Sequence record: NZ_CP014093.1
Origin: a plasmid
Strand: one strand, 5' to 3'
Length of the DNA: 64,000 bases
Below are positions 5,332 through 63,273 of the stretch, piece after piece. The position numbers and the translations under genes were made by a program. The notes under the pieces are model-generated. The model ran no database searches, was not told where the DNA came from, and saw nothing but the letters and a program-made list of their open reading frames with translations. How positions within the stretch are numbered: the first letter of the stretch is position 1; every line of letters starts with the position of its first letter.

Positions 5332-5577
5332 ATGAGAAACGCATATAGTACGCAAGCACCAAAGAAAGCTACAAACTTAAGCTTAAACAGTGAGTTACTT
5401 GCGGAGGCTAAACGCTTAAATATAAACCTTTCGGCAACAATGGAAAAGGCACTTGAAAAAGAAGTACGTCAACGCCTTAAAGCTGAATGGTTAAAGCAAA
5501 ATTCTGAGGCCATTAATGCTTGTAACGAGCTAACTGAAAATCACGGACTATTTTCTGATTCTTACCGAGTATTCTAA
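5332..5577 (+). CDS. ccdA: CcdA antitoxin
   Basis: ATNLSLNSELLAEAKRLNINLS...EVRQRLKAEWLKQNSEAINACNELTENHGLFSDSYRVF resembles CcdA; TAATG overlap with ccdB. Confidence 0.7.
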   Translation: MRNAYSTQAPKKATNLSLNSELLAEAKRLNINLSATMEKALEKEVRQRLKAEWLKQNSEAINACNELTENHGLFSDSYRVF

Positions 5578-5894
5578 TGTCACAATTCTCGCTATACAAA
5601 AACAACGATAAAAACACTGCAACCGCATATCCATACTTTGTTGACGTTCAAAGTGGATTGCTGGATACATTGAACACTCGGTTAGTTATTCCGTTGACGC
5701 CTATTGAGCTGTTAGAGAAAAAAGCACCCAGTCATCTATGCCCCATAATCCATATTGATGAAGGTGACTTCGTAATTCTGACGCATCAAATGGCAAGTGT
5801 ACCAACCAAAATTCTAAGAGAACCTGTAAGCAATCTAAGCACTTTTAGAGACGAGATCATCTCTGCTATCGACTTTCTTATTACGGGCATATAA
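5577..5894 (+). CDS. ccdB: CcdB toxin (gyrase poison family)
   Basis: YPYFVDVQS...RLVIPL...LCPIIHIDEGDFVILTHQMASVP...FLITGI aligns along its length with F-plasmid CcdB (~101 aa). Confidence 0.8.
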   Translation: MSQFSLYKNNDKNTATAYPYFVDVQSGLLDTLNTRLVIPLTPIELLEKKAPSHLCPIIHIDEGDFVILTHQMASVPTKILREPVSNLSTFRDEIISAIDFLITGI

Positions 5895-12127: not shown

Positions 12128-14850
12128 ATGATACCCACCAACGAGAAAACATGGCGCCAAACATATCTAAGTTCACTGAATTTAAAAGGTACAGAATACA
12201 GATACTGGTCATTAAAAAAACTTGCCCAAGATTATCAAGTAAACCTGTCCAAAATTCCCGTAACTAAACGTCTGCTTATTGAAAATGTAATGCGACAAAC
12301 CTCTGATTTAAAAGAGTCATCTCAAATTATTGAAGCATTGCTCTTTAAAAATAAGGCTCTCGACTCAGAGAGCAACGGTAATTCATCAGAATTAAGTTTC
12401 TATCCTAGTAGAGTACTGATGCAGGACTATACTGGGATACCTGCTTTAGTCGATTTAGCCGCAATAAGAGATGCAGTAGCTCAAGAAGGCGGAGATCCGA
12501 GTTATGTAACGCCTAAATGTCCGGTTGATCTTGTCATAGACCATTCGTTAATTGTTTATCAATCAGGTTCAGAATCTTCGATACAAACAAATCGCGCACA
12601 TGAAATGGCACGAAATAGAGAGCGTTATACATTTCTAAAATGGGCACAAAAGAACTTCCGTAACTTGACAGTGATCCCTCCCGGTAAGGGGATATGCCAT
12701 CAAGTTAATCTGGAATATCTATCTCAAGTTGTGCGCGAAGACGAAAAAAGAGTGTTAACACCAGACACGGTAATAGGAACCGATAGCCACACCACTATGA
12801 TAAACGGGTTAGGCGTGTTGGGTTGGGGAGTGGGAGGCATAGAAGCCGAAGCTGCAATGCTTGGTCAGCCACTAAATATCGCCATCCCACGAGTTGTCGG
12901 AGTACGTCTTGATGGGCAATTGCGTCCCGGTGTGACTGCGACCGATTTGGTTTTGACGATCACAGAAAGGTTAAGGTCTCATGGCGTGGTTGGTAAGTTC
13001 GTTGAGTACTATGGTGACGGCTTAGCAACTCTATCGGTGGCAGACCGAGCAACGCTTGCCAATATGGCACCAGAGTATGGAGCCACTTGCGGATTTTTCC
13101 CAATTGATGAAAATACTATCGCCTATTTAACCCTGACAAACCGCCCTTCTTCACTGATTGATAGAGTGCGGGCGTACGCTCTAGAGCAAGATCTATGGTG
13201 GGATACAAACCGCCCTTCACCAGAGTATGACGAAAATGTTGTAGTCGATTTATCTGCTATCGGTACCTCAATAGCAGGGCCCAAACGACCTCAAGACAGA
13301 CTTAATATCAGCGCCATTAAGCAAGCGACTCTTGACCAATGTGCTATTGAAGGTGCCGCAAACTCAAGCCAGCCAGGCTCATCCAGACCCTTACATAATG
13401 GTGATGTCGTCATTGCAGCTATCACCTCGTGCACTAACACGTCAAACCCCGCTGTTATGCTGACTGCGGGTTTGGTGGCTAAGGCAGCAGTTAAAAAAGG
13501 GTTAACCATTCCTAGCTACGTCAAAACTTCTCTCGCCCCCGGTTCATTAGCTGTCGCTCGATATCTCAATGATACGGGTTTGCAAGACTACCTCGACCTA
13601 TTGGGATTTCATCGAGTTGGATACGGTTGCACAACATGCATTGGTAACTCTGGCCCATTAAAAAACAATCTTGAAACTGAGATCTTGGAAAACAGCCTGA
13701 ATGTATCGGCGGTATTATCAGGTAATCGCAACTTTGAAGGTAGAGTACACCCCTCTGTTAGCCTAAACTGGCTTGCCTCGCCACCTTTAGTCGTCGCATT
13801 TGCGTTAGCGGGTACGACCTGTATTGACTTAGAAATAGACCCAATTGCGCTCAATACTAACAACGAGCCCGTCTATCTAAAAGATCTGTGGCCAAGCCAA
13901 GCCATGCTAGATGAAATGCTAAATCAAGTCCATGAGAGCCACTTTAGATTGAGTTACAGCGACATTACTGAAGGTGATGAAGAGTGGGAGCAATTGTCAA
14001 TGAAAGATAGCCCCTGCTACCCTTGGGACGAAGGCTCCACTTACATACAACGCCCTCCTTTTTTGGAAGTACCACCGCCGACTTTTCCTGTTGAATCAGC
14101 GCGTGTATTAGCCATTTTGGGGGATTCAATTACGACCGACCATATTTCACCAGCAGGCCGCATTTCAGAGCATAGTCCGGCGGGTCAATATCTACTTTCA
14201 AAAAACATCACACCCGAAGAGTTTAATAGTTATGGTTCACGCCGAGGAAATCATCACATCATGGTTCGTGGACTTTTTCAAATGTACGTTTGGAAAACAA
14301 AATCGCCTTACCGACGATAGGCGGTGTCACGCGATGTTATGGCGATACCAAACTGGATGACTGTAACATGTCAACCACTGAGAAAGCTCCTCCCATCATT
14401 CCTATTTACGACGCCAGCAGGAGGTCAATCGAACTTAACGTTCCGTTGGTAATATTTGCTGGCAAAGACTATGGTTCAGGCTCTAGTCGTGACTGGGCGG
14501 CAAAAGGTTGTTTGTTATTGAATGTGAAAGCGGTCATCGCGGAATCGTTTGAGCGAATTCATCGTAGTAATTTAGTCGGTATGGGCATACTGCCTCTTCA
14601 ACTGATGCGACCAGATGAATTAAATTCACTGACTTTAGAGGGTAATGAGACTGTTTTTATTGCCCCCCACGAACCTATTAAGCCGTTATTGGAGCTCAAT
14701 ATTATCGTAGTAACAGCGCAAGGTGCTGAGCTCACCATACCTGTTACTGCTCGTATAGATAACCCTAAGGAACTGGAGTATTTTAACTCGGGGGGTATTC
14801 TTCAATATGTTCTGAAGCAGCTGACAGCTAATATTCCTAAAATGTCATAG
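12128..14850 (+). CDS. aconitate hydratase (AcnA/AcnD family), disrupted by a single frameshift near 14290-14320 (ORFs 12128..14320 and 14290..14850)
   Basis: aconitase blocks DSHTTMINGLGVLGWGVGGIEAEAAMLGQP and CTTCIGNSG; C-terminal swivel domain continues in the +1 frame; the shift sits at a T-homopolymer (ggactttttcaaatg). Confidence 0.75.
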
Positions 14851-14926: not shown

Positions 14927-16279
14927 TCAGATGTTGTTCTGTTTTTCTCTTACAGAGAAATACCGTAAAAAAGTGAGACCGAGTAAAGCTGAACAGATGG
15001 AAGCTGAGAAAATTCCAAGTTTTGCTGCATTAATTTGATCAGGGCTATAGGCTAACTCTGAGATAAACAAGGCCATCGTAAAGCCAATGCCAGCCAACAT
15101 CCCACCCCCCAAAATCATTCCCCAATTCATATTTTCTGGAAGCATGGCTAACCGGAGTCTTACGGATATCCAACTGAACAGCACAATACCTATAGGCTTG
15201 CCAAAAACAAAACCCAAAAAGACAGCAAAAGTAATTGGAGAAGTCGCGTTCGTACTGGTTAGTGAAATCCCAGCATTAGCAAAGGCGAATAGTGGTAAAA
15301 TGATAAACCCGACCCAAGGATGAAGTAACATTTCTAAGCGCTCGACCGGTGAAAGCGTTTCACGGGCCGCCGCCGCAGCTGTCCTTAAAGTCTCTCCTTC
15401 AATCTTATCTCCGCTCCATTGCTTCATAGGAGATGATGCCACTATTGAGTCCACAATAGTGGAGAGGTGTTGCTTGCTGACCCACTTATTTGTGGGGGTT
15501 AATAAGCCTAGAATCACACCAGTAATTGTCGGATGTATACCAGACATGTCGACCGACAACCATATCATTCCTCCAACAAGAGAGAAGAGTACAATACTGC
15601 GAACTCCCAAGAAGCTCATACCTCGAACAATAATAAAACCTATCAATGCATAAACCACGGGCCGCCATTCAATGTCATTACCATAACCAATAGCCACAAC
15701 AAAGATTGCGCCAATATCATCGACTACGGCCATTGATAACATGAATATTCGTAAGCTACTCGGAATACTTCGTCCTAAGAGTGCTAGGCACCCGATTACA
15801 AATGCGGTATCCGTCGCCATCACAGTCCCCCAACCATGATGCCCTGGCTCACCAAATTGGATAAATAAATAGAAAAGAGGAGGTAACAACATCCCACCAA
15901 GAGCGGCAGCAATGGAAAGTACAGCTAATTTTGGATTACGAAGTTCACCCAGCACCAACTCACGCTTAAGTTCTAAGGCAATGAGAAAGAAAAACAAAGT
16001 CATTCCAGCATCGTTTATCCATTTGTGTAAAGAACGCTCAAAGACTAAATCACCGAAAGTAATCCCTACCGAAATCTGCCAAAAATGAGCAAACTCTTCA
16101 CTTAGATTTGAATTGGCAAGTAAAACAGCAAGTACTGCTGAAACAAATAGAACAATGCCTGCTGCGGATTCAATATGTATAAAACGGTTTACTGGTTGAG
16201 CAACCCAATCAATGTACTCTTTTGGTAATCGAGTCGGATTAGTTGGTACTATTGGGATTTTTTTACTCATTGTTTTCAA
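14927..16279 (-). CDS. nhaA: Na+/H+ antiporter NhaA with an N-terminal extension
   Basis: 450 aa, 11-12 TM; matches E. coli NhaA along the length (WINDAGMTLFFFLIALELKREL, ATDTAFVIGCLALLG, HPTITGVILGLLTP). Confidence 0.8.
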   Translation of the reverse strand: MKTMSKKIPIVPTNPTRLPKEYIDWVAQPVNRFIHIESAAGIVLFVSAVLAVLLANSNLSEEFAHFWQISVGITFGDLVFERSLHKWINDAGMTLFFFLIALELKRELVLGELRNPKLAVLSIAAALGGMLLPPLFYLFIQFGEPGHHGWGTVMATDTAFVIGCLALLGRSIPSSLRIFMLSMAVVDDIGAIFVVAIGYGNDIEWRPVVYALIGFIIVRGMSFLGVRSIVLFSLVGGMIWLSVDMSGIHPTITGVILGLLTPTNKWVSKQHLSTIVDSIVASSPMKQWSGDKIEGETLRTAAAAARETLSPVERLEMLLHPWVGFIILPLFAFANAGISLTSTNATSPITFAVFLGFVFGKPIGIVLFSWISVRLRLAMLPENMNWGMILGGGMLAGIGFTMALFISELAYSPDQINAAKLGIFSASICSALLGLTFLRYFSVREKQNNI

Positions 16280-17255
16280 CTGTAGGTATTAAGTTACCTT
16301 CAATGCTATTGAGAAACCTGAATATGTCACTGTTAGTAGATAAAACAAGCGTTGTATTTTCTGAAATGATAGTTGAGTAAGACTGCATTGTTCGCGTGAA
16401 CTCATAAAGGTCTCTCGCTTGAGGGCTTTTATTGTAAGCTAACGAATAAATTTCGGCGGCTTTGGCATCAGCTTGTCCGCGAATCTCTTCGACTTCACGA
16501 TAGGCTTCAGACTGGATTTTATTCAAATCTCTGATGCGGTCACCACGAATCCTCGCTGCTTCCCCATTCCCTTCGGATAAAAAACGTTCCGCGATTTGCC
16601 GACGTTCACTAATCATTCGTTCGTAAATTTTAGGGCGAACACTTTCATTGTAATTAATACGTTTGAAGCGAATATCGAGCAATTCAATACCAAATATCTT
16701 TATTTTTTCTGACGCAGCAGAGAATATTTCTTGTTCTACTAGTTGACGCCCTTTTTTAATAGGAACAAGGGTGCCAATTTTTAACTCTCCGTCACTGTCA
16801 CTTAATAAGGCATCTCGTAACGGTTTTCTGTTTTTGTTGGTACGAATTATTTCGATTAGTTCATGCTTTGCGACAGCATTTCGCGTCTCACTTCCTAAAA
16901 TATCGTCAAGACGAGATTGTGCACTACGCTCATCTTTGATTCTTAAAAAGTATTGAAGTGGGTCGGTTATTCGCCATCGAGCGAATAAATCAACTGAAAT
17001 ATACAGCTTATCTTTTGTGGGCATATCGGAAGGGTTGCCATCCCACTCCAACACTCTTTTGTCTATAGTGTTAATCTCATGAATGAATGGCATTTTTATC
17101 TTTAACCCGGCATCCACAACAGGTTCTCCTATTGGCTTCCCAAACTGAGTAATAATGACCTGTTGTACTTCACTCACGGTGTAAAGTGCGTTGTATATAC
17201 CAAGAGAGACACATAAAACTAATGCGGTTATGACTCCTATTTTTTTCGGTTTCAT
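16263..17255 (-). CDS. hflC: HflC (SPFH/band-7 modulator of FtsH)
   Basis: N-terminal TM, band-7 core, coiled-coil C-terminus; follows hflK. Confidence 0.8.
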   Translation of the reverse strand: MKPKKIGVITALVLCVSLGIYNALYTVSEVQQVIITQFGKPIGEPVVDAGLKIKMPFIHEINTIDKRVLEWDGNPSDMPTKDKLYISVDLFARWRITDPLQYFLRIKDERSAQSRLDDILGSETRNAVAKHELIEIIRTNKNRKPLRDALLSDSDGELKIGTLVPIKKGRQLVEQEIFSAASEKIKIFGIELLDIRFKRINYNESVRPKIYERMISERRQIAERFLSEGNGEAARIRGDRIRDLNKIQSEAYREVEEIRGQADAKAAEIYSLAYNKSPQARDLYEFTRTMQSYSTIISENTTLVLSTNSDIFRFLNSIEGNLIPTVENNE

Positions 17256-18315
17256 TGTGCATCTCCTTGTGTCTTATTGAGATTAAGTAAAGGTAAGATA
17301 TTGTTTGCTCGCTCATCAATGATAATTTTGGCCCGAATATTCGGTAATACAGCTTGCATGGTTTCTAAGTAGATTCTTCGTTTGGTCACTTCTGGAGCTT
17401 TAACGTACTCAAACAATAGTGCATTAAATCGCGCTGTATCCCCCTCGGCTTCATTCACTCTTTTTAAACGATAACCATCAGCCTCTCTGATCCTTTGATC
17501 TTTTTCTCCTAAAGCTAAAGGGATCACTTTGTTGTAATCTCGACGAGCTTCATTAATAAGCTTTTCTTTTTCCTGTTGGGCTTGGTTCACTTCGTTAAAT
17601 GATGCCTGAACAGGTTGAGGAGGGTTGATGTTTTTCAATTGCACTTGGTCAATACTGATTCCTAAGGCATATTTCGTTGAGAGCGCCTGCATTTTTGAAA
17701 GCGCTTCATATTCAATTTCTTGTCGGCCTATTGTGATCACTTCATCCACAGTTCTATCCCCGACAACTTCACGCATTACGGACTCAGAAACATATCGAAG
17801 CGTTTCACTAGGTTCCCGGACTTCGAACAAAAACTTAATAGGTTCAGAAATTCGATATTGAACCACCCACTCCACAAGGCAGCATTTAAATCACCAGTGA
17901 CCATTTGTGTCTCTTGGCGACGATCGTTCACTCTGGGACTTTGGTGAGGATCATTAGCTCCTGGCGTCGTAAAACCAAACTCTTGTTTCAGCTGACGTTT
18001 AACTGGAACTATTTTTACCGTGTCAATACCAAGTGGAACCTTGATATGGAGCCCCGCAGGAACATTATTTACATACTTACCAAAGCGTTGTATGACAGCG
18101 ACAGAATCACTTGGAACGGTATAAAATGTTGACCATAAAATGAGAACTAAAAATAAAATAATAAATGGAGAAAAAAAGCTCGACGGTCCGCCACCGATAA
18201 GAATTTTCTTGAAGTGCTGAAGAATAGTATGAAAAGCTTTTTTCAAATGTGGAGGATCTTGCTGACCTCCGCCCCAGGGGTTTCCTGAAGAATTGTTACT
18301 TGGGAGCATGAGCAT
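17252..18315 (-). CDS. hflK: HflK, apparently frameshifted (N-terminal part 17776..18315, C-terminal part 17252..17875 in another frame)
   Basis: two overlapping ORFs together give ~386 aa of HflK-like sequence (VIQRFGKYVNNVPAGLHIKVP ... SPFH core ... coiled coil). Confidence 0.75.
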
Positions 18316-45280: not shown

Positions 45281-45724
45281 TTGGGGGATTCGATGAAAGA
45301 AACGATCGTTTTAATCACCAACCACACACCAAAGGAAATCACGGTTCAGGGTCGCGTTATGCCGCCACTGGCCAAAGATTTCCCTCTCTCAGTTTTCAAC
45401 GTGAACCGCTTCAAACACGAAGTGGAAGCGGCCTATCCAAACGGCCTCGTTTCGGTTCGCCTTGAGCCAACGGTTCTACCAGAAGTTCAAACGAAACCAG
45501 ACACAGCCACCAGCGACAAAGGCACAGCGCTATCCGCGCTTGAGCTTAGCGCGAGCGTTGAAAAAGCACTGATTAACCACGGTGTGACAACGGTTGAGCA
45601 ACTAACCGAAATGACGAAAGACAACGTGATTGCGGTGAAAGGTATTGCTCAAGCGGGTTTGCAAGAAATTGTCAGCCAGCTTGCAGCACAGAATCTAACG
45701 CTGAAAGAGACAGAGAATGAGTAA
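45281..45724 (+). CDS. phage protein with a C-terminal RNA polymerase alpha-CTD-like helix-hairpin-helix domain
   Basis: LSALELSASVEKALINHGVTTVEQLTEMTKDNVIAVKGIAQAGLQEI resembles the RpoA CTD pattern LELSVRSANCLK...I..VGDLV..TE.ELL...NLG.KSL.EI. Confidence 0.35.
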   Translation: MGDSMKETIVLITNHTPKEITVQGRVMPPLAKDFPLSVFNVNRFKHEVEAAYPNGLVSVRLEPTVLPEVQTKPDTATSDKGTALSALELSASVEKALINHGVTTVEQLTEMTKDNVIAVKGIAQAGLQEIVSQLAAQNLTLKETENE

Positions 45725-49175: not shown

Positions 49176-50507
49176 TTAAGCTTTGGTTAGCCTATCTTTC
49201 AAGTCGGCTGGTGCAATGTAGGTGTTCTCGTTGCCATCCTTTGATTTGAACAGCAATTTCAGCTCCACCAGCTTCTCAAGATACTTGCGCGCAGAGGTAT
49301 GAGACACGTCAAAATCAGACTGAATTTCCTTAACTGAAAAGACACGTCCGGCTGTTTCTAATCCCTTGGCCAGAATCACAATGTGCGGCAGTTTCAACGC
49401 GCCCTTAAGCTTGGAGTCGTCTAGCAGTTCGCGCACCTCTCTCGTATCTTCAATCTTAGACTTGATGTACTCGTTAAAGCGCTCAATCGCATTGATGATG
49501 ACCGTTAGCTGGTAGTCCACAAAGTGCGTTAAGTCATTGTCGTCCGTTTCGGTGTAAACGTAGCTTCTAACGTACTTGGTTGGCGCGCTCTTAAGAGGTG
49601 CAGAGATCGAGACGTACTTAAAGTTTTCATAACCATGCTTAAGGATGAACCAGTAGAAAAGCGCCCTAGCCGTTCTTCCGTTTCCGTCCATGAATGGGTG
49701 AATGTAGCCAATCATAAAGTGCAGAATACAAGCCTTAACGATTGGATTAATAAAATTGGTGCTGGTGGTATGGTCGGTGTTGGCGAAGTCACATAGTTGC
49801 TCAATGAGCTTCAAAACGTGCTCATGTTCTGGCGCTTCGTGAATAATATCGCCAGTGGCCACGTCTCTAACCATGACCGCATCCGTTCTGTATTGGCCAG
49901 CAACGTGCTCATTCTCTAACACGCCATTGGTGGCTATTTCATTAAATCCGCTAATCAATTCCGGTGTGAGCTCTACATCCTTGAAATCGTCAGCCATCAT
50001 GATCAAATGCCAGTTATTGATAATCATCCGTTCGGAGTCATCTTGCGGCTCACGTTCTGTTTCAAGCATTTCCTTGGCCACCTTGCGCGTTGTGGCAGCT
50101 CCCTCCAATTGGGCGCTGTTAATGGCTTCTTCCATAATCACGCTTTTCACTAGGTGTGCCTTTTTGTCTTGAGCAGATAGCGGCAAATCTTCTAGTTTGA
50201 GCTGTTTATCGATGCGGAATAGCTTAGCGTCGAGACTGGCGGCACTAAGCTTGAATGGATTGCCGTTTTCATCAACAAGCGAAATGTCGTTAAGGCCACG
50301 TCTAATTTTTAGGGCATGCCAAGCGTAGCTCTTTTGGTCGCCTTTAAACTCTTTTGAACGGTACTGAAAGTCATTCCAATGCAAGTAGTTACCGCTACTA
50401 TCAAACCCGTATTTAATTGGGTCTAGCTTGTCGATTAACTCTACTACTTTTATAAAATCAGTAGGTTTTGCTGGTGGGATGCTAACTCCCGCAATCTTTT
50501 GGCTCAT
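49176..50507 (-). CDS. Fic-family protein (AMPylator/Doc fold) with a C-terminal winged-helix region
   Basis: canonical Fic motif HPFMDGNGRTARAL (HPFx[DE]GNGRxxR). Confidence 0.85.
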   Translation of the reverse strand: MSQKIAGVSIPPAKPTDFIKVVELIDKLDPIKYGFDSSGNYLHWNDFQYRSKEFKGDQKSYAWHALKIRRGLNDISLVDENGNPFKLSAASLDAKLFRIDKQLKLEDLPLSAQDKKAHLVKSVIMEEAINSAQLEGAATTRKVAKEMLETEREPQDDSERMIINNWHLIMMADDFKDVELTPELISGFNEIATNGVLENEHVAGQYRTDAVMVRDVATGDIIHEAPEHEHVLKLIEQLCDFANTDHTTSTNFINPIVKACILHFMIGYIHPFMDGNGRTARALFYWFILKHGYENFKYVSISAPLKSAPTKYVRSYVYTETDDNDLTHFVDYQLTVIINAIERFNEYIKSKIEDTREVRELLDDSKLKGALKLPHIVILAKGLETAGRVFSVKEIQSDFDVSHTSARKYLEKLVELKLLFKSKDGNENTYIAPADLKDRLTKA

Positions 50508-50765
50508 GCCGTGAAACTTTTTTAAAATGTTTAATACATCCAGTATTGCACACAGGCAGTGGGAGTCAATCGCTTATCTATCTACGAGTTGCAAGGGGTG
50601 TAATGCTTTGCTGAATACTTTCAATAGTACAGTTGCTCCCTTAACTGCCATCCCGATCGATCAATATTTTATGCCAGTGACCAACAACTGTCGGTAGACA
50701 TTAAAGTTCAAAACCTTTCGAATAGTTGGCTTTTCAGTAAGTCACTCTCAAATTCACTTCGTAAC

Positions 50766-50788
50766 ACTCATAAGTGCCCCATTATTGG
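50766..50788 (+). repeat. 23-bp direct repeat, copy 1 (actcataagtgccccattattgg)
   Basis: 21/23 identical to copy 2 at 54033-54055. Confidence 0.5.
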
Positions 50789-50957
50789 TAGACCTTTTAC
50801 TCATTCACATCCTTTTCATGGGTTTTCCCCTACAAAAATTTATCCATTCTTCTAGTGGTGTTCGTTTGTAAATCCCCGTGTATTACGGGGGTAAATTCCA
50901 CAATAGATTAAGGTGTAGCGAGTATGAACTAATTATACGGGTTTTAGATATGCAACA

Positions 50958-51479
50958 TTGTTATTGAGCGGAGAAAGTGGCAATCTATCAACAAGCGATA
51001 CATCCATCTCGCGCATAAATTTTAAGAAGTCTAAGGAGACAGTTTTGCAATCACGGATATCCATCCCAACAGATAATATATATAAGTTCTATGCCACGTT
51101 TGGACTTGTGCTTCTAATTTCAACCATGGCACTTTTTGTATTTGTTTACTCGACATTCCAGGCTAACTCTCATGCTCGTTACGTCGAACTTAAGGTACTT
51201 GCTTCTATGTCAGAGTTAACACCCGAGCAGTCGGCACGAAAGGACATTTTAGAGGCAAAAGAAGTAATCGACACTTCAGATAAAAAAACTTATATGGACG
51301 TGATTGCTTTCTTGTTGGCATCGTCACTCTTTTTACTAGCTTTCGGGTTTAATCGTTGGCATAAAAAAATTCAACCTTTACAGGATGAAATATTATTGAA
51401 ACAAAAAGAAAAAACTGAGCTAGAGATTAAATTTCTCAATAAACAGATGAATTCTTCCCGCATCAAGCGAGAAAAATAA
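50958..51479 (+). CDS. membrane protein (2 TM) in an AT-rich insertion
   Basis: hydrophobic segments; low GC. Confidence 0.35.
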   Translation: MLLSGESGNLSTSDTSISRINFKKSKETVLQSRISIPTDNIYKFYATFGLVLLISTMALFVFVYSTFQANSHARYVELKVLASMSELTPEQSARKDILEAKEVIDTSDKKTYMDVIAFLLASSLFLLAFGFNRWHKKIQPLQDEILLKQKEKTELEIKFLNKQMNSSRIKREK

Positions 51480-51550
51480 AATACTAGCAGTTGCTATTTT
51501 TAATGTTTTTAACGCATTTAATTCTCATGGAATATAGATATAAAGTTAAA

Positions 51551-52342
51551 ATGAGCAAAATATTTCATATAAATCATAAGGTGTCCGCATTCAAAAATGT
51601 GACTTTTTGGTTATTTCTATTAACACCTATGGTATCTGGACTTATACTTGGTTCTTTTGTCTGGTCTCCTTATAGCTTAGGTTTTGATAATCTAAGTTAT
51701 AAGTTTTTTTTGGACGTTAGCAAACTACCCTTAGGAATTATGGGATTATCGTTTCCCATAGTCGGTATTTACATGTTTCAGTTTAGAACGAAACAAGCAT
51801 CTGAGCTTTATCTAGTAAGTAGAAAGCGAGATATAGAAACTAATAAAGATAAATATTTAGATTCACTGATAGCTATGAGTTTAATTGTGTCTAGACTCAA
51901 TAATCACTTGCATGGTTTAGAGCAAGTTTTAAAAGTCAACTCATTAAGTTATGAGGAACTAACGGATAGGTTTAATAAAATTTATTCATTATGGGAAAGT
52001 GTTTTTTGCGACTCATTGTATACTTTTGCTTTGTCTCGTTTGAATCAGGAAATTAAGAAAGCAGATGCTTTATTTTTGGGAGCAAGCTTAGACCTTACAC
52101 TTAACAGAGCAGAAAGGTTTAGGCCTGGCTACTATTCTAACATTATAAATGAGTTGCATTTAATACATTTAAAGATATGTAAAGATGCATCTCACTGCAA
52201 ATGTGCATCGTTACAAGAAATATATACTGAGCAATCGCTATGTGGCTTGCCCTCAAATGATACTTTACGTGACCTAAACAATGAATTTGAAATAATAAAT
52301 GAATATGATGAGAAAATAAAAAATATTGAAAATAATAAGTAA
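51551..52342 (+). CDS. membrane-anchored protein (2 N-terminal TM plus ~200-aa cytoplasmic domain) in an AT-rich insertion
   Basis: start taken at MSKIFHIN; hydrophobic N-terminus; low GC. Confidence 0.35.
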   Translation: MSKIFHINHKVSAFKNVTFWLFLLTPMVSGLILGSFVWSPYSLGFDNLSYKFFLDVSKLPLGIMGLSFPIVGIYMFQFRTKQASELYLVSRKRDIETNKDKYLDSLIAMSLIVSRLNNHLHGLEQVLKVNSLSYEELTDRFNKIYSLWESVFCDSLYTFALSRLNQEIKKADALFLGASLDLTLNRAERFRPGYYSNIINELHLIHLKICKDASHCKCASLQEIYTEQSLCGLPSNDTLRDLNNEFEIINEYDEKIKNIENNK

Positions 52343-52411
52343 CGCATCTGCGTTAATATTTATTAGTAGGGCTCTTATGGTGATCCCTATTTAGATTAAA
52401 TAAAACTTCGT

Positions 52412-52792
52412 TTACACCATATTTTTTAACACTCGAGCATATTTGAGGATTTGATGAGCAACCTTTATATCATTCGATGCACCTAACTCAAGTAAAGCAA
52501 CCCCAATCAAGACTTGCTGCGCAGTAACCAACTGTCCTGTTGGCAGCTCTAATCGATCATGCCTCATTACGAAGTTTTTCCAATCTTCACAAGAGCTCAA
52601 TTCCCTCCCTTTATTCATCCTCATCAAGCGTTTACACTCTGGAGGAATTGATTTCCCCTTGTCCCATTCTTTGACCGTTCTCACAGTTTTTAAACAAGGT
52701 TTGGCAGCTTCTTCGACGGTTAAACCACATTCAAATTCACGAAAAATATAGTTTTTAGTCATTTCGTGATACTTCATTGAATTGTCCCTCAA
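52412..52792 (-). CDS. small HTH DNA-binding protein (phage regulatory type)
   Basis: GLTVEEAAKPCLKTVRTVKEWDKGKSIP helix-turn-helix pattern. Confidence 0.4.
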   Translation of the reverse strand: MRDNSMKYHEMTKNYIFREFECGLTVEEAAKPCLKTVRTVKEWDKGKSIPPECKRLMRMNKGRELSSCEDWKNFVMRHDRLELPTGQLVTAQQVLIGVALLELGASNDIKVAHQILKYARVLKNMV

Positions 52793-53271
52793 AAGAGAGA
52801 CATTTTATAGGATACGCATATGCAATCGCATTCAACATAAGCGCCCAAAGTGCGTACTATACGAAAGCTTATTAACTGGCAATATTTGACTTACAAAGAG
52901 TTATTAATGAATTGCTAATCTTCGATTTTTCGTAACGCATTTTTATCCAGAAGTGTGCTGACGGATCGTGTAACACAAAAATGCCCCAAACCTTGCTAGC
53001 AATGATGATTCGTTCAATCTCATCATGGAAGTTTGAACTAGATTTTGTTATCCAAGTGATGCCTCAAGGTATGGGTTTTGTTAGTTTGACTAATGAGTTA
53101 GTATGAGATAAATTGTTAAATTAAGGCTGGATGGAAGCCTGCTCACTCCAATAAGGCAAACTCTTTCGAGAACCATAATCCTAAATTATATATTTTTTTC
53201 TTATTTATTTCGGCGGGAAGAAGAAAATTAGGAGTGGATTTACTTAGCTTTTCGTCTAGGTATATAAGATC

Positions 53272-53985
53272 ATGAATATTACTCAATCTTTCATTTCAAA
53301 TGTCAAGAAATTAGCTAAAAAGATTCAAGTTGAACTAGGTGTTAAGCACACCCAAGCACTTGAATTAGCAGCACGAGAAGTTGGCTTCCCTAACTACCAT
53401 TCACTATTACAGCATTCGAAAAAAGCTAACAATCATAGAGCTAATATAGTTAATGCAAATAAAGGTATGGATGGGGTTAACCAAGAGTTCGCTATGGCTC
53501 AGGGGAATAGAGGTAAACAGCTTAATCCAAATCAAAACAGCTCTCTATTGGTTATATTTGATGATGATTTGATGGTAAATGAGCTAGAGTATGAAGGCAC
53601 CACTCCCAAACTTATTAGACGTAACTTTAAGGCCGAGTATCTCGATAAAGGCTTTGCAACCGATATAGGTGCAAGGATACTAAGTTTCGCTGAAGTTAAA
53701 CACCGTGACTTGGATATAGGCTATGGTTCGCAATTACACCAGTGGGGATACATCTGTGTTGAGTTCTTACGAAACAGAAACAATCCTTGGACTATTGAAG
53801 ACGCTAATGAAATTGCGAAAGAGCGCATAGGTTCGAAATTTGGCTCTTGCTACCGTGAATTCTTTTTCATCGATGGAGAATATGTAAATAACCATGTCTA
53901 TGATGAAAGAACTACAGCATTAGACCTCGAAAACGATAGACAGTACCATCCAGCAATCGATGGCTATCATGACAACTATAGCTAA
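53272..53985 (+). CDS. hypothetical protein (237 aa)
   Basis: ORF only. Confidence 0.35.
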   Translation: MNITQSFISNVKKLAKKIQVELGVKHTQALELAAREVGFPNYHSLLQHSKKANNHRANIVNANKGMDGVNQEFAMAQGNRGKQLNPNQNSSLLVIFDDDLMVNELEYEGTTPKLIRRNFKAEYLDKGFATDIGARILSFAEVKHRDLDIGYGSQLHQWGYICVEFLRNRNNPWTIEDANEIAKERIGSKFGSCYREFFFIDGEYVNNHVYDERTTALDLENDRQYHPAIDGYHDNYS

Positions 53986-54032
53986 GTGTTAACTTAACTA
54001 GTCCACTTTGAGTCAGTTGTTCTTCCTAGCTG

Positions 54033-54055
54033 ACTCATCATTGCCCCATTATTGG
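54033..54055 (+). repeat. 23-bp direct repeat, copy 2 (actcatcattgccccattattgg)
   Basis: see copy 1. Confidence 0.5.
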
Positions 54056-54363
54056 TTTCGCCAAAAAGCTCACGCACTCGGTCGGGCAAATTTCGACCAA
54101 ACATAACTAATCTGACACCCAAAACTCACAAAGAGCAAAAATGGGTGTCATTGTACTGCTCTTGGCTCAAATGAATGTACGAATTTTTAGCCTGTAAATC
54201 GCTCTGAAAGCGTCACAAACTTATGATTGCCTTGAACAAGAGTTCAAAGTCCTCGCATAGAGCGCTTGAGGTGCTTCTAAGTGGTGTTTTTGATAGCGAA
54301 CTCGCCCGTTTAACATTATGGGAATAATGAACACCGATTTTAGGTATAGCTAAGGCCCCCCCC

Positions 54364-54924
54364 CTAGTTCCAAGCGTTTAGTAAATCTGTGTATGAAGAT
54401 TGGTCTACGTGGCCTGATGCTAGTGAAGCATCAAGCGAAAGATGATATGCCTCATGAAAGCCTGATGTTGGAAAACTGTTGCCATCAACCTTGAGGTAGC
54501 CAGCCTGAATTATAGCCTTTACTTGATCGGCACTTAGACTAAGCATTTTAAGTTTGCCTATAGAGTTACCATTACTGTGGCATTTTTCTGCTGCCTTTAG
54601 CCATTTACCATTTAACCTTAACGCAGTGTCATGTAATTCCTTATCATCACATAAAAAACCAAATGAATAAGCACTAGTCGCTATAGTGAAAAATGCTTTA
54701 GAACCTTTATGAAAGCTTATCTTAGCTGTGATAACGGTTGTATTGCTTACGGTGCCATAATTATCTGTTTTATCCGTAGAGGTTAACATATTGTACTCAG
54801 AATCAAGAACCCAACGCCAAGATTGATTTGACATATCGTAGACACTGTCCTGAGTGTTCGGAACAGAGCAGCCAGTAAGTAGAATGCCTAGTGTGGTGAC
54901 TGTTATTATTGATTTTAATTTCAT
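54364..54924 (-). CDS. lipoprotein
   Basis: signal peptide with lipobox LLTGCS. Confidence 0.5.
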   Translation of the reverse strand: MKLKSIITVTTLGILLTGCSVPNTQDSVYDMSNQSWRWVLDSEYNMLTSTDKTDNYGTVSNTTVITAKISFHKGSKAFFTIATSAYSFGFLCDDKELHDTALRLNGKWLKAAEKCHSNGNSIGKLKMLSLSADQVKAIIQAGYLKVDGNSFPTSGFHEAYHLSLDASLASGHVDQSSYTDLLNAWN

Positions 54925-55004
54925 GTGTATCCCAAGCGATATTATGTACCGTGTACTTTGATGAGTAGTTCGTTATTAACCTGTTGTTATGTTAGTGGTT
55001 AAAG

Positions 55005-55358
55005 TTATACCTCTAACTTCTCTATCAATGCATGCGCAACTCGATATACATCTGATAGGTAGTGAGCTACGCAGATTTTTACATACTCTCGATCATCGTA
55101 GTCTCGACAAATTTGGGGGGCGAGTTCAACTTCAAAATCGTGAGTTAAGCTCATTGCCGTATCAATTAAATGTTGGGGTTTTTCGAAAGCTTTAACCGCA
55201 CCAAAGTCTTCACCAACTGTCGCCGTCATAATTTCATATGACGACTCTTCCCCTAAGATACGCAACAATACTTGGTCTTGGTATACCACAATAAACTTTT
55301 CTGCTGCTTCTAAACAACGTTTATCTGATTTTCTGATATCAAAAATTGCTTCTTTCAT
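55005..55358 (-). CDS. hypothetical protein (117 aa)
   Basis: ORF only. Confidence 0.3.
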   Translation of the reverse strand: MKEAIFDIRKSDKRCLEAAEKFIVVYQDQVLLRILGEESSYEIMTATVGEDFGAVKAFEKPQHLIDTAMSLTHDFEVELAPQICRDYDDREYVKICVAHYLSDVYRVAHALIEKLEV

Positions 55359-55789
55359 CTATAACATCTCTGAAAAGATAACTAGCCTGTAGGATTTCTC
55401 AGTCGCCATTTTCTAACCGTCTTCTACATTAAAGTGTCAAACAGAATGGGCCTCAAACCTATCTAGATTTCACGCAGAAACGCGTTTTTTCATTTAAAAT
55501 CGCTTTCATTTAGTCCCGTAAGACTTGTAATCCGCACATAAACCAATCTTTCTGTTAGTGCGATTTTACTCATCGCACTGGCTCGTAACAACTAGCTTTG
55601 TCATACCTGTAGTTATCCATGAATTGCTAATTTAGGGGAAGCGCTAGCACGTTTATGTCCAAAAGTGAGTTTCGGTCTTTGTTGTCCATCGACAATAACA
55701 AAGTTTAAATCGCGTGCCTGATTGGTTTGAGTTAAGATTCACCAAGCCTATCCCCTATCTCAAAATGCGCCGCCACTACCGGAGCGGCC

Positions 55790-57689: not shown

Positions 57690-57843
57690 TTACGTTGGTT
57701 GGAACGTACTGATTGAGAACTTAACGATCTACGGTGGCCAGCCTATCGATGCGGTATTCAAAACACCTCAAACGATGGCCATAAGCCTAGATAAAGCGCT
57801 CCAAGACAAGGTGAAAAATGGACAGAAACCAACAAGAGGTTGA
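57628..57843 (+). CDS. +1-frame ORF overlapping the chaperone 3' end: candidate programmed-frameshift extension (G/GT or E/E' analogue)
   Basis: frame arrangement 0 / +1 / +2 across 57628-57843. Confidence 0.3.
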   Translation: MKQLERCSYPFGITTSLQRFDYVGWNVLIENLTIYGGQPIDAVFKTPQTMAISLDKALQDKVKNGQKPTRG

Positions 57844-60535: not shown

Positions 60536-60883
60536 ATGAGCCAAGAAATTGATTACTTACTACGGGTCGATATTGACGGTGTAAAGGTGGCCGATGAGAA
60601 ACACGCGATCGTTGCGCGCGTCTCTGAATGGCTCGATACACCTCAAGGCCAAGTTTGGGGCGCTCCCAAATGGGGCAACAGATTAGGGGCATACAAGCAT
60701 GAACCAATAAACGAAACCACAGCAGCAGCTATCGAAAACTCAATCCTATTAACCCTCCCAATTGACGTGAAAGACGCGGTGGTTCAAGGCATTGCCGTAG
60801 AGCCAAGCGTGAACGGTATCGATGCCTACAAATTGACGATCGTTGTGAACGGTCAAACGTTGGAGAGAGGTATTACGTTTTGA
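60536..60883 (+). CDS. baseplate wedge protein, gp25 / GPW-like
   Basis: 115 aa; AIVARVSEWLDTPQGQVWGAPKWGNRLGAYKHEP matches the gp25-family core (...L.T..GER...P.FG..L.......). Confidence 0.55.
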   Translation: MSQEIDYLLRVDIDGVKVADEKHAIVARVSEWLDTPQGQVWGAPKWGNRLGAYKHEPINETTAAAIENSILLTLPIDVKDAVVQGIAVEPSVNGIDAYKLTIVVNGQTLERGITF

Positions 60884-62277
60884 GCAAGTTAGAAGAAGTC
60901 AAAAAGACCTTTAACGAGGCGATTGCTGGTTCAAGCTGGTGGTCGCGTCATATTGGTTCGCAGTTCGTTGACTACCTTTGCTTATTTGTGGCCAAGATTG
61001 TTGAACGCATGGCAGCAATCAGTAGCCGTGCATTGCAAGAATCCTACCTAACGCTAGCCACTAAACGCACCTCCATTTTGGCGGGTGCTGAAACTGAGGG
61101 CTATGTAGGGCGAAAAGCAGCGCCATCGAAAGGCCGTGCGCTAGTGACCAATACCGGAACAAAGCGCGTTACCTTGCCGAAATACAGCCAATGCGTGGCT
61201 GACAATCAATTGCGCTATACGCTAATGGAAGCCATTGATCTTATGCCGCAAGAAAGCGCCGCAGTAGAGGTGCAACAGTTCGAAGTATCCAAGATGACCT
61301 ACACGGTCGATGAAGGAAAAAACTGGTTGGCCGTGGCGTTCCCTCAAGAGCTGACTAAGCGTATTCATAACATCATCGTGCGCGTGAACGGAGAAGAATG
61401 GACGCACGTCTTTAAGTTTCGTAATACGGACGGCAAATCCAAAGCCTACATGGAGTATTACAAGCCAACCGACCAGCTAGGCGTTCGTTTTGGTAACAAC
61501 AATAACGGTCGTGCGCCAGCGACAGGTGATGTAATTGAGTTTGAGCTATGGCTGACTAATGGTGTGACTACCCTACTCGATGCGCAGTATTTAGAGCTTA
61601 TCGATATGGGGATTCAAAGCGCCTATAAAGACCAGCTCTCAATCAAAACGTCCACCAGTATTATCGGCGGTGCAGAGCCGGAAGACATTGAGTCAATCCG
61701 AAACAACGCCCTTTACTCGCCAATCTATGACGAGCAGATAGCGTGGGACTCGGATTACATGACCTTTGTTAAGCGCAATATTTCTGGTGTTACTTGGTTG
61801 TCGATTTGGGGCGAAGCGGAGCAGGAAAAACTCACAGGAACGCCGGACGTTCGCAACATCAATACGATCTTTATTTGTGCTTACTCTGCCGATAAAACCG
61901 ACGAGATTTTGAATCAGGAAATCCAAGTTCTATTCGCTGGCCGAGAGGGCTATAACGAGCGCTATAAGCTGGTGGAGCGTAAGGACGTGCCATTTACCGT
62001 GACGGTCAAAGGTAAGCTTTACCCAAGTTCAAATCCAGAATGGGCGACAAAGGTACTGGCCGATGCGTTAGATGAGAAATTTGGCAAACAGACAAGTCGC
62101 AATGAGCGCATTACCAAAAACCAAATTTGGGATGCGATCCAAGAGCTCAACGTGACTTTGGGCATTAAAGAGTTTGAGGTTGAAGTCGTTGGGATTCTTG
62201 ACCGCATCCCGATTGATACTTACCACTATTTAGATGTGAATGCGTCAACCATTCAACTGAACTTCGATTACTCATAG
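60880..62277 (+). CDS. baseplate J-like protein (gpJ/gp6 family candidate)
   Basis: 465 aa directly following, and overlapping, the gp25-like gene. Confidence 0.4.
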   Translation: MSKLEEVKKTFNEAIAGSSWWSRHIGSQFVDYLCLFVAKIVERMAAISSRALQESYLTLATKRTSILAGAETEGYVGRKAAPSKGRALVTNTGTKRVTLPKYSQCVADNQLRYTLMEAIDLMPQESAAVEVQQFEVSKMTYTVDEGKNWLAVAFPQELTKRIHNIIVRVNGEEWTHVFKFRNTDGKSKAYMEYYKPTDQLGVRFGNNNNGRAPATGDVIEFELWLTNGVTTLLDAQYLELIDMGIQSAYKDQLSIKTSTSIIGGAEPEDIESIRNNALYSPIYDEQIAWDSDYMTFVKRNISGVTWLSIWGEAEQEKLTGTPDVRNINTIFICAYSADKTDEILNQEIQVLFAGREGYNERYKLVERKDVPFTVTVKGKLYPSSNPEWATKVLADALDEKFGKQTSRNERITKNQIWDAIQELNVTLGIKEFEVEVVGILDRIPIDTYHYLDVNASTIQLNFDYS

Positions 62278-62278
62278 A

Positions 62279-62410
62279 AGTTTTCGCACGGAGCAAGAAA
62301 GACACGGATGTTTTCGCATGCGAGAACTTTAAAACACAACACACTATATAGTTTTCGCATGCGAGAACTTTAAGAAACATCATCCCGTATAGTTTTCGCA
62401 TGCGAAAACT
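62279..62410 (+). repeat. three tandem ~41-bp repeats (plus a partial fourth), each centred on the 18-bp palindrome GTTTTCGCATGCGA(A/G)AAC
   Basis: palindrome at 62310-62327, 62351-62368 and 62392-62409 (the last one perfect); partial copy at 62279-62294. Confidence 0.7.
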
Positions 62411-62433
62411 TTTACACCAATAAGGCGAAAAAC

Positions 62434-63273
62434 ATGGCATTTGGAGACTTCAGAAAATGGCTATCTGGCCAGCTAACCAAGGCGCGTCAAAAGGAAACCG
62501 CTTGGGTAGATTTAGGAAGCGCGATCGCAGAGTCAATTGAAACTCACGTAGAGTCATACATTGAAAAGCTTAAAGCGCGTTCTTCACTGTACGAAATGGA
62601 CAAAGAATCGCTGCTAGAAGACATTAAAGAGCTGCGAAAAATCTTCCCACTAGGCGAAGTGGCCGATGAGGACTTGCCACACGTTGTGATGCAGCGTAAG
62701 GACGAAATTCACTTTAAAAAGACCATTTATCCACTTATCTCAACGCTCGCGCGTGAATTTAAAGGGTTACGTGTTAAGTGGGAACGAATCTACGCGCCAG
62801 TAGACCAAGAGCAATTTCCATACGGCACGTTCTTAGTTCCCGAGTCAGAGTTAGAGCTGCAAAACGGACTAAACCCGAGCGACTTTTTTCTGACTAGTCG
62901 CGGTGCTATTCGCATCCCTTTGAACGACATTGCAGGTGAGGACGGCATTACCGAGGAAGCCATTCGAGCATTCGAAGCGAAGATTAAGCGAGTGGTGCAT
63001 CCTCTTATCCCATTACGAATTGTTTTAGATGGCCAATTGTATTCTATTGAATTTGAAGTCATGGATATGGTGGAAATACCTAGCTATTCTGACCATGTTA
63101 CGGTTGGAAAACAGACCACGACCGATATAGAATCAACACCGATCTATAAACAGGATTTCGTTCAAACTGGAACGACGACACAGGAAGAACGCCCTGCTAG
63201 CCCTATGTATGGTACACCTAGAATGGATGCGATCCCCTTAGATGCGATCTCCATTGATAGACGGTACTATTAA
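62434..63273 (+). CDS. tail/baseplate protein (gpI position)
   Basis: synteny only. Confidence 0.3.
   Translation: MAFGDFRKWLSGQLTKARQKETAWVDLGSAIAESIETHVESYIEKLKARSSLYEMDKESLLEDIKELRKIFPLGEVADEDLPHVVMQRKDEIHFKKTIYPLISTLAREFKGLRVKWERIYAPVDQEQFPYGTFLVPESELELQNGLNPSDFFLTSRGAIRIPLNDIAGEDGITEEAIRAFEAKIKRVVHPLIPLRIVLDGQLYSIEFEVMDMVEIPSYSDHVTVGKQTTTDIESTPIYKQDFVQTGTTTQEERPASPMYGTPRMDAIPLDAISIDRRYY

Follow-up and report, generated by a model that had tools for sequence, protein, structure and literature searches.

Tandem palindromes in the baseplate operon of a P1-like Vibrio phage-plasmid are probable parS-type sites for its ParB protein

Phage P1 has a type Ia ParAB pair and a single composite parS next to parB; chromosomal parS has the sequence TGTTTCACGTGAAACA. 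In ParB proteins, GERRxRA is the CTP-binding, clamp-forming motif. For the phage-plasmid N15, Grigoriev and Lobocka reportedly described in 2001 sites within regions that lytic development requires; SopB is said to be able to repress a nearby promoter. N15 has four natural inverted-repeat sites (IR1-IR4), and the sopC centromere of F has 10 functional 43-bp repeats (PMC7205306). KorB of RK2, a member of the ParB family, is a CTP-dependent clamp whose partner is the short ParA protein IncC, and the palindromic OB sites to which it binds are distributed over the plasmid (PMC11790492); according to a study cited in that paper, KorB has 12 binding sites on RK2. Here we describe three tandem dyads and a decayed half-site in the tail region of a Vibrio plasmid and, judging from the sequences compared below, we consider it highly probable that they are parS-type ParB-binding sites, forming an accessory tandem cluster within a baseplate operon.

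The DNA analyzed, referred to throughout as the window, is a 64,000-nucleotide stretch that we assign to a P1-like Vibrio alginolyticus phage-plasmid because it has the P1 gene order and its DNA matches are to Vibrio plasmids only. Nine of these plasmids match the region at 90-99% identity; they are mostly from V. alginolyticus and all are typed as non-mobilizable. A search of a phage collection gave no match to the region at the DNA level. PHROG matches identify, in order, PmgC, the tail tube, PmgB, a Sit-like transglycosylase, a protein in the PmgA position, a baseplate protein, a phrog_2015 protein and a fibre-assembly-like protein, which is the P1 order pmgC-tub-pmgB-sit-pmgA-bplA-16-R. 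The dyads lie between the two genes of the bplA-16 pair: upstream is a homologue of the P1 baseplate protein BplA (60880-62277, plus strand; phrog_1369, 1.4e-158; 35% identity to P1 BplA), and downstream is a homologue of P1 gene 16, a baseplate or tail tube gene, in the same position as gene 16 of P1 (62434-63273, plus strand; phrog_2015, 6e-100). An earlier interpretation made from the DNA letters alone, which we call the sequence-only reading, had described these genes as gpJ-like and as occupying the gpI position, but they are BplA and gp16 homologues and the gene order is that of P1, not of P2. In P1 the two genes overlap with no gap, and on plasmid HNV2 their homologues are 3 bp apart. 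The 156 bp that separate them here form the largest gap in the operon, although not the only sizeable one as had been thought, since 128 bp also separate the pmgB and sit homologues (57690-57817). This second gap holds no copy of the dyad.

Other parts of the window vary among related plasmids. About 37 kb (744-37636) are missing from the 93-kb relative NZ_CP082321.1 and look like cargo inserted in the tail/baseplate region. This segment encodes GGDEF-EAL and Cache-GGDEF proteins, an IS605 OrfB/TnpB-like protein, an aconitase, an NhaA antiporter, SPFH/Band-7 proteins, a fragment of a group II intron reverse transcriptase/maturase and an IS30-like (rve) transposase. The aconitase is split over two overlapping ORFs (12128-14320 and 14290-14850), as is an SPFH/Band-7 protein (16263-17255 and 17252-17875), and either split may reflect a frameshift or a pseudogene. 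Another variable cargo spot, of about 5 kb (50613-55709), has no match to NZ_CP082321.1, and the position matching 49176-50507 (minus strand) is annotated in relatives as a Fic-family protein. A further ORF (45281-45724, plus strand) lies within the block of structural genes; the corresponding position in relatives carries the annotation RNA polymerase alpha C-terminal domain-containing protein, and the ORF might be relevant to how the phage drives late transcription.

The gap begins after the stop codon of the bplA homologue (62275-62277) and ends at the gp16 ATG at 62434; between them lie, in order, a half-site (62280-62289), a 20-bp spacer and three 41-bp units. The three tandem repeats of about 41 bp noted in the sequence-only reading are real and non-random. 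A repeat search of the window found three 41-nt units in register, starting at 62310, 62351 and 62392, each opened by an 18-bp dyad and together spanning 62310-62432. Tandem Repeats Finder reported one array (62310-62412; period 41, 2.5 copies, 87% matches, score 150), by a wide margin the strongest tandem repeat of the window. When up to three mismatches were allowed, the 18-mer occurred three times where shuffled sequences gave an expectation of 0.07, and beyond the three array copies it was found nowhere else in the 64 kb. The array thus has the layout of an F sopC-type centromere, with three units at a 41-bp period and one inverted repeat in each, and its dyads fall within the 14-18 bp of the short palindromes bound by HTH-type ParB proteins.

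All three dyads had been read as perfect palindromes. That is correct for the third only: predicted parS site 3 (62392-62409) is the perfect 18-bp palindrome GTTTTCGCATGCGAAAAC, while predicted sites 1 (62310-62327) and 2 (62351-62368) both read GTTTTCGCATGCGAGAAC and depart from it by a single mismatch in the right arm. Site 3 ends 24 bp 5' of the gp16 start codon, and the unit that contains site 2 is missing in relatives with two copies. The dyads are separated by two 23-bp spacers (62328-62350, which is variable among relatives, and 62369-62391); these elements are listed without strand. A partial copy had been placed at 62279, and a remnant left half-site, GTTTTCGCAc, does exist, its true position being 62280-62289. 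It is what is left of a fourth predicted ParB site, complete in strain 2439-01, which has GTTTTCGCATGCGAGAACTTTTTCGCACGGAGC where the window has GTTTTCGCACGGAGC; the half-site of the window looks like the product of an 18-bp deletion between two TTTTCGCA repeats. The spacer that follows it (GGAGCAAGAAAGACACGGAT, 62290-62309) is common to a paralogous three-site cassette on related plasmids, as seen in an alignment with XWV9 5536-5681.

Because the window encodes neither ParA nor ParB, the sequence-only reading saw a single cluster, and because parAB lies outside the window, the link between the array and parAB comes from related plasmids. We searched relatives for the palindrome, in line with a check that reading had itself suggested: complete relatives carry 12-14 copies each, almost all intergenic, and only within an arc of about 19 kb around the parA-parB operon. 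In the complete 93-kb plasmid NZ_CP082321.1 there are 14 copies (up to three mismatches), all intergenic and confined to a stretch running from 85.0 kb across the record origin to 10.7 kb, the arc that holds parA and parB. One of these sites begins 2 bp past the parB stop codon and five lie upstream of the parA operon. Further sites are grouped into cassettes of two or three, spaced at 41 or 48 bp. NZ_CP135970.1, at 98.9% identity the closest relative, carries 12 copies, 11 of them fully intergenic; the arc over which they lie measures 19 kb and is 93.6% coding. The bplA-gp16 array, about 16 kb from parAB in these relatives, is one of roughly eight site clusters. Sites thus follow parB and precede parA, as parS sites would, in NZ_CP082321.1 and NZ_CP135970.1, and they do so also in the more distant plasmid pVS127 and in a Verrucomicrobiota contig, both described below. 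Three sites end 24-25 bp before a start codon, that of gp16 and those of two genes in XWV9; this spacing and the intergenic placement could reflect an added or different transcriptional role.

A separate observation concerns orientation. Sites that are asymmetric by virtue of a GAGAAC variant arm (eight in NZ_CP082321.1 and seven in NZ_CP135970.1) all face one way along the plasmid, whatever the direction of the neighbouring genes, and this shared orientation is unexplained by the parS model.

The proteins encoded by parA and parB in the arc have the make-up of a ParABS system, namely a ParB with both the CTP motif GERRxRA and an HTH domain, together with a Walker ParA. The 305-aa ParB matches the Pfam families ParB_N (6e-16), KorB (PF08535; 5e-12) and HTH_ParB (8e-8); among proteins of solved structure its best matches are Spo0J, ParB, Noc and KorB (PDB KorB, 3e-15), Spo0J and ParB being the closest, and its motif GERRWRA aligns to GERRFRA of Spo0J. 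ParA, at 257 aa, is a short Walker ATPase matching Pfam AAA_31 and CbiA, and only ATPase families were matched across its length.

The dyad travels with this pair of genes. On pVS127, a conjugative (MOBH) plasmid of V. scophthalmi whose ParB is 53% identical, the exact 18-mer is present on both sides of parAB, 25 bp ahead of parA and 1 bp past the end of parB, and the 17 kb read around parAB contain no phage genes. On the Verrucomicrobiota MAG contig JBDKFG010000004.1 (985-1527 and 2263-4334), four dyad copies lie just upstream of a distant parA-parB whose ParB is 25-29% identical, with a recognition helix that ends in WVSKYL; this is an apparent case of the same parS specificity being reused across phyla, as far as the sequences tell. 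In BLASTP comparisons of the regions, ParA and ParB alone were common to the arc of the phage-plasmid and three non-phage plasmids. Conversely, pTHAF64_c, a syntenic P1-like plasmid, has no copy of the dyad; its par system is of another kind, with a 417-aa ATPase, bplA is followed by a gap of only 60 bp, and the plasmid lacks both the Rep and the ParB of the phage-plasmid. The comparisons with pVS127 and pTHAF64_c alone do not separate ParB from Rep as the binder, because pVS127 shares a Rep homologue and pTHAF64_c is without both proteins.

More divergent ParB proteins are accompanied by other dyads. Beside parAB stands ATTTTGCATGCAAAAT on pFE10 and pSNUTY2 (ParB identity about 44%), TTTTTGCATGCAAAAA on pLMG19650 (about 40%), TTTTAGCATGCTAAAA on pJM1 (about 35%) and AGTTTAACATGTTAAACT on pKB1A97-67 (about 35%). 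In all, five site variants stand beside eight ParB homologues, and they co-vary with the protein as expected of parS. The three ParB proteins with CGCATGCG-type sites, the Verrucomicrobiota protein included, have recognition helices that end in (Y/W)(I/V)SKYL, whereas those with other dyads differ at the recognition helix, the ending ...SKYL being seen only with CGCATGCG-type sites. The sequence of the dyads, their distribution, their linkage to parAB and this co-variation are all direct observations.

Conservation is concentrated on the dyad itself. Across 88 distinct family sites, high information content is limited to the dyad with its AA and TTT flanks, about 23 bp in the form AA-18mer-TTT, and the spacers that make up the remainder of each 41-bp unit are unconserved. 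All six related contigs read at the bplA-gp16 junction keep 2-4 sites; ParB was found on four of the six, the fetched loci of the other two not including it. Relatives and IMG/VR contigs have two, three or four sites in this gap, and two distinct two-copy forms hold different spacers; units have therefore been lost or gained independently. The cassette of the window has a paralogue in NZ_CP082321.1, a three-site cassette at 5.5 kb, and the likeness extends to the GGAGC..GAAAGACACGGAT spacer. The array probably arose when a parS cassette was duplicated and inserted at a bplA/gene-16 junction that had previously been tight, and its copy number (two, three or four) would drift through recombination between units.

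We also scanned 596 Gb of sequence, one genome per species, for the dyad. There were 37 matching stretches, near our rough estimate of the chance rate, and the only loci with at least three clustered sites were the Verrucomicrobiota contig and a V. diabolicus P1-like plasmid contig, the latter being the sole multi-copy match in Vibrio. An Acidaminococcaceae MAG chromosome (OY782827.1) has at least five perfect copies of the 18-mer over three loci, with conserved flanks (...tgcacatgtttt... and ...atcaacaacttagcc...) and no ParA or ParB homologue near them, and these appear to be an unrelated repeat family that shares the palindrome by chance. A generic REP element, which the sequence-only reading had named as the finding that would speak against a regulatory site, was rejected: outside par-linked clusters the frequency in the scan is about that of chance, and on the plasmids the palindrome recurs 12-14 times, only around parAB and confined to the par arc. 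A full-text literature search for the core sequence returned no paper, and a search for phage-plasmid parS in Vibrio returned no title or abstract describing the present system.

Four other explanations of the dyads were weighed. The sequence-only reading had proposed that phased dyads are bound cooperatively by a dimeric regulator, and this general idea fits a dimeric helix-turn-helix protein; its further proposal, a late activator or repressor of the fibre genes, is not supported by the comparison with other loci, the dyad being missing from the other late operons of the window and from pTHAF64_c and standing beside parAB on non-phage plasmids. We regard it as very unlikely that the dyads are operators or activator sites of a phage late-gene regulator that form three tandem regulated promoters for gp16 and the tail-fibre genes. 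The position directly upstream of the gp16-R-fibre genes would suit such a role, as would the intergenic location of the copies, the P1 late promoter LPs lying one gene further downstream (between 16 and R), and a TATAGT hexamer before the second and third dyads, which, if it were a -10 element, would put the centre of the upstream dyad near -41. However, there is no copy upstream of other late operons in the window or outside the par arc of the 93-kb relative, pTHAF64_c has the same structural genes without the dyad, and the plasmids on which the same dyad flanks parAB have no phage genes in the regions read. A scan of the gap for sigma-70-like promoters found none, and none of the one-mismatch matches to the P1 late box (AAGTTACTT-N4-TACAAT), the only matches obtained, is in the gap. 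A P1-type late promoter was in fact tried as a candidate in its own right, on the basis of LPs as we read it (a 9-bp AAGTTACTT-like box at -22, then 4 bp, then the -10 hexamer TACAAT), and was rejected; the window and its relatives gave one-mismatch matches only, none of them in an evident late-promoter position. The ORF at 52412-52792 (minus strand), suggested earlier as an HTH protein that might bind the dyads, has its match in PHROG 1668, 'tail assembly protein' (2.5e-61), and shows no Pfam regulator domain. A role at the RNA level, in which the palindromes would act as hairpins in the late mRNA, as a REP-like stabilizer, or as a processing site or attenuator that sets the BplA:gp16 ratio, is likewise very improbable. 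The predicted fold of the gap is strong (-50.2 kcal/mol, z = -7.2 against shuffles), although repeated palindromes fold stably as a matter of course; A and T runs do flank the dyads, and the copies are all intergenic (fully so for the 11 of 12 in NZ_CP135970.1). Against such a role, the gap contains no intrinsic terminator or terminator-like match and no Rfam family above chance (chance-level miRNA-like hairpins only), around parAB copies are also found in gaps between converging genes and 5' of promoters, the frequency in the 596 Gb is about chance outside par-linked clusters, and a function in RNA does not predict co-variation with the recognition helix of ParB.

The sequence-only reading had also mentioned an iteron-like or a recombination site, which comes closer in that it is a plasmid-maintenance site, but a partition centromere was not named. 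Binding by the replication initiator, in the manner of iterons, or by a small HTH-like protein encoded 5' of parA is in our view highly unlikely. Rep of the phage-plasmid has a homologue on pVS127 (41% identity), where one dyad lies between rep and parA, yet in the 93-kb relative NZ_CP082321.1 about 12 kb separate rep from the nearest dyad, the region beside rep has direct repeats of its own, and the fetched parAB neighbourhoods of pFE10 and pSNUTY2 keep variant dyads with no Rep homologue. Replication iterons were accordingly set aside as a class, the sites being palindromic as well as distant from rep. The small protein is suggested by a 79-aa ORF with HTH-like sequence, though no Pfam match, that precedes parA in the phage-plasmid; no homologue of it occurs near the other parAB loci, and it has a distinct double dyad of its own, GTTGC-N5-GCAAC, at the par promoter only. 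Two copies of this element, 15 bp apart, lie just upstream of the ORF (NZ_CP082321.1, 9668-9714; NZ_CP135970.1, 9479-9523) and none was found elsewhere on the plasmid or in the window, and the pair is probably a local operator of the par operon. That the dyads are targets of site-specific recombination, or a miniature mobile repeat that spreads in intergenic DNA and has no function for the host, is extremely unlikely. Such elements could account for paralogous multi-site cassettes with common spacer sequence at two loci, for a copy number that differs between strains and for the single orientation of all asymmetric sites. They would not account for a conserved dyad amid unconserved spacers or for a linkage to parAB that recurs on unrelated replicons and in another phylum; moreover, no recombinase is adjacent, and the copy number changes by complete 41-bp units, the outcome that recombination between repeats would give.

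Returning to the parS interpretation, we infer that the array binds ParB, permits its spreading and contributes to partition, and what is known of HTH-type ParB/parS systems suggests how this would work. One ParB dimer would be held on each 18-bp dyad (about 23 bp with the AA/TTT flanks) through its helix-turn-helix domain, and the 41-bp spacing, about 3.9 helical turns, would place adjacent dimers on roughly one face of the helix, an arrangement like that of the 43-bp units in F sopC. Because ParB has the GERRxRA CTP-binding motif, it would be expected to load as a clamp at these sites and to spread onto flanking DNA. The 12-14 sites over the arc of about 19 kb around parAB could then jointly nucleate a partition complex, which the short Walker-type ParA would position so that the low-copy plasmid prophage is inherited.

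Why parS cassettes should lie between late genes invites a more speculative answer, which we hold to be possible but improbable: ParB may double as a KorB-like silencer that couples partition to the lysis-lysogeny decision, with partition incompatibility or regulatory cross-talk with conjugative plasmids such as pVS127, through the parS that they have in common, as a further consequence. Clamps loaded at the cassettes (at bplA/gp16 and upstream of fibre and DdrB/DarB-like genes) would silence the genes for baseplate, fibre and anti-restriction proteins in the plasmid prophage, and the state of the partition complex would thereby be coupled to lysis or lysogeny. If ParB loading in the tail operon does alter late transcription, regulation of the KorB or N15 type would extend to P1-like phages. 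The parS interpretation has implications of its own. An identical parS on a phage-plasmid and a conjugative plasmid predicts partition incompatibility between the two. The interpretation also supplies a testable predicted centromere, AA-GTTTTCGCATGCGARAAC-TTT, for the P1-like phage-plasmids of Vibrio, a widespread family in which the genes of this region are almost all annotated as hypothetical, and the parS variants tied to changes in the ParB recognition helix offer a natural series for studies of ParB-parS specificity.

Set against the described systems, the array shares features with several. The organization resembles F sopC in having tandem units of about four helical turns, each with one inverted-repeat site for a dimer of the ParB family (here 2-4 units of 41 bp, and predicted). 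It differs in that sopC directly follows sopB, while this array lies far from parAB as one of several clusters, in that sopC works with SopA, a type Ia protein that is long and HTH-bearing, rather than with a 257-aa ParA and a Spo0J/KorB-like ParB, and in that the dyad sequence is unrelated. With N15 it shares a phage-plasmid setting in which a ParB-type protein has (here, is predicted to have) several separate palindromic sites and not one array; N15, however, has an F-like type Ia Sop system and four single sites, in contrast to 12-14 sites, several of them in phased pairs or triplets, within one 19-kb arc. The likeness to RK2 KorB lies in the protein, which matches the Pfam KorB domain and KorB crystal-structure sequences, and in the 12-14 dispersed, almost all intergenic palindromes. 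The half-site TTTTAGC of the pJM1 variant resembles the OB sequence TTTTAGCGGCTAAAA (PMC11790492), but the dyad described here differs from TTTTAGCGGCTAAAA in sequence and length and does not fit the OB consensus, and neither a homologue of KorA nor an OA-like site was detected next to the dyads. Chromosomal parS/Spo0J systems likewise have a palindrome with a GTTT-rich arm, several copies around parAB and a ParB with the CTP motif; the present sites are instead 18 bp long with a CGCATGCG core, plasmid-borne, intergenic and arranged in phased tandem cassettes. P1 itself provides the phage backbone and the local gene order from pmgC to R, but its bplA and gene 16 overlap where the array stands here, and its late box is unrelated to the dyad. 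On the sequence-level tests, every one of which it passes, the array is to be classed as a predicted parS of an HTH-type ParB, outside the Sop and KorB/OB families as narrowly defined, and it is most likely a new example of a well-known kind of element, an expected kind in an unusual place.
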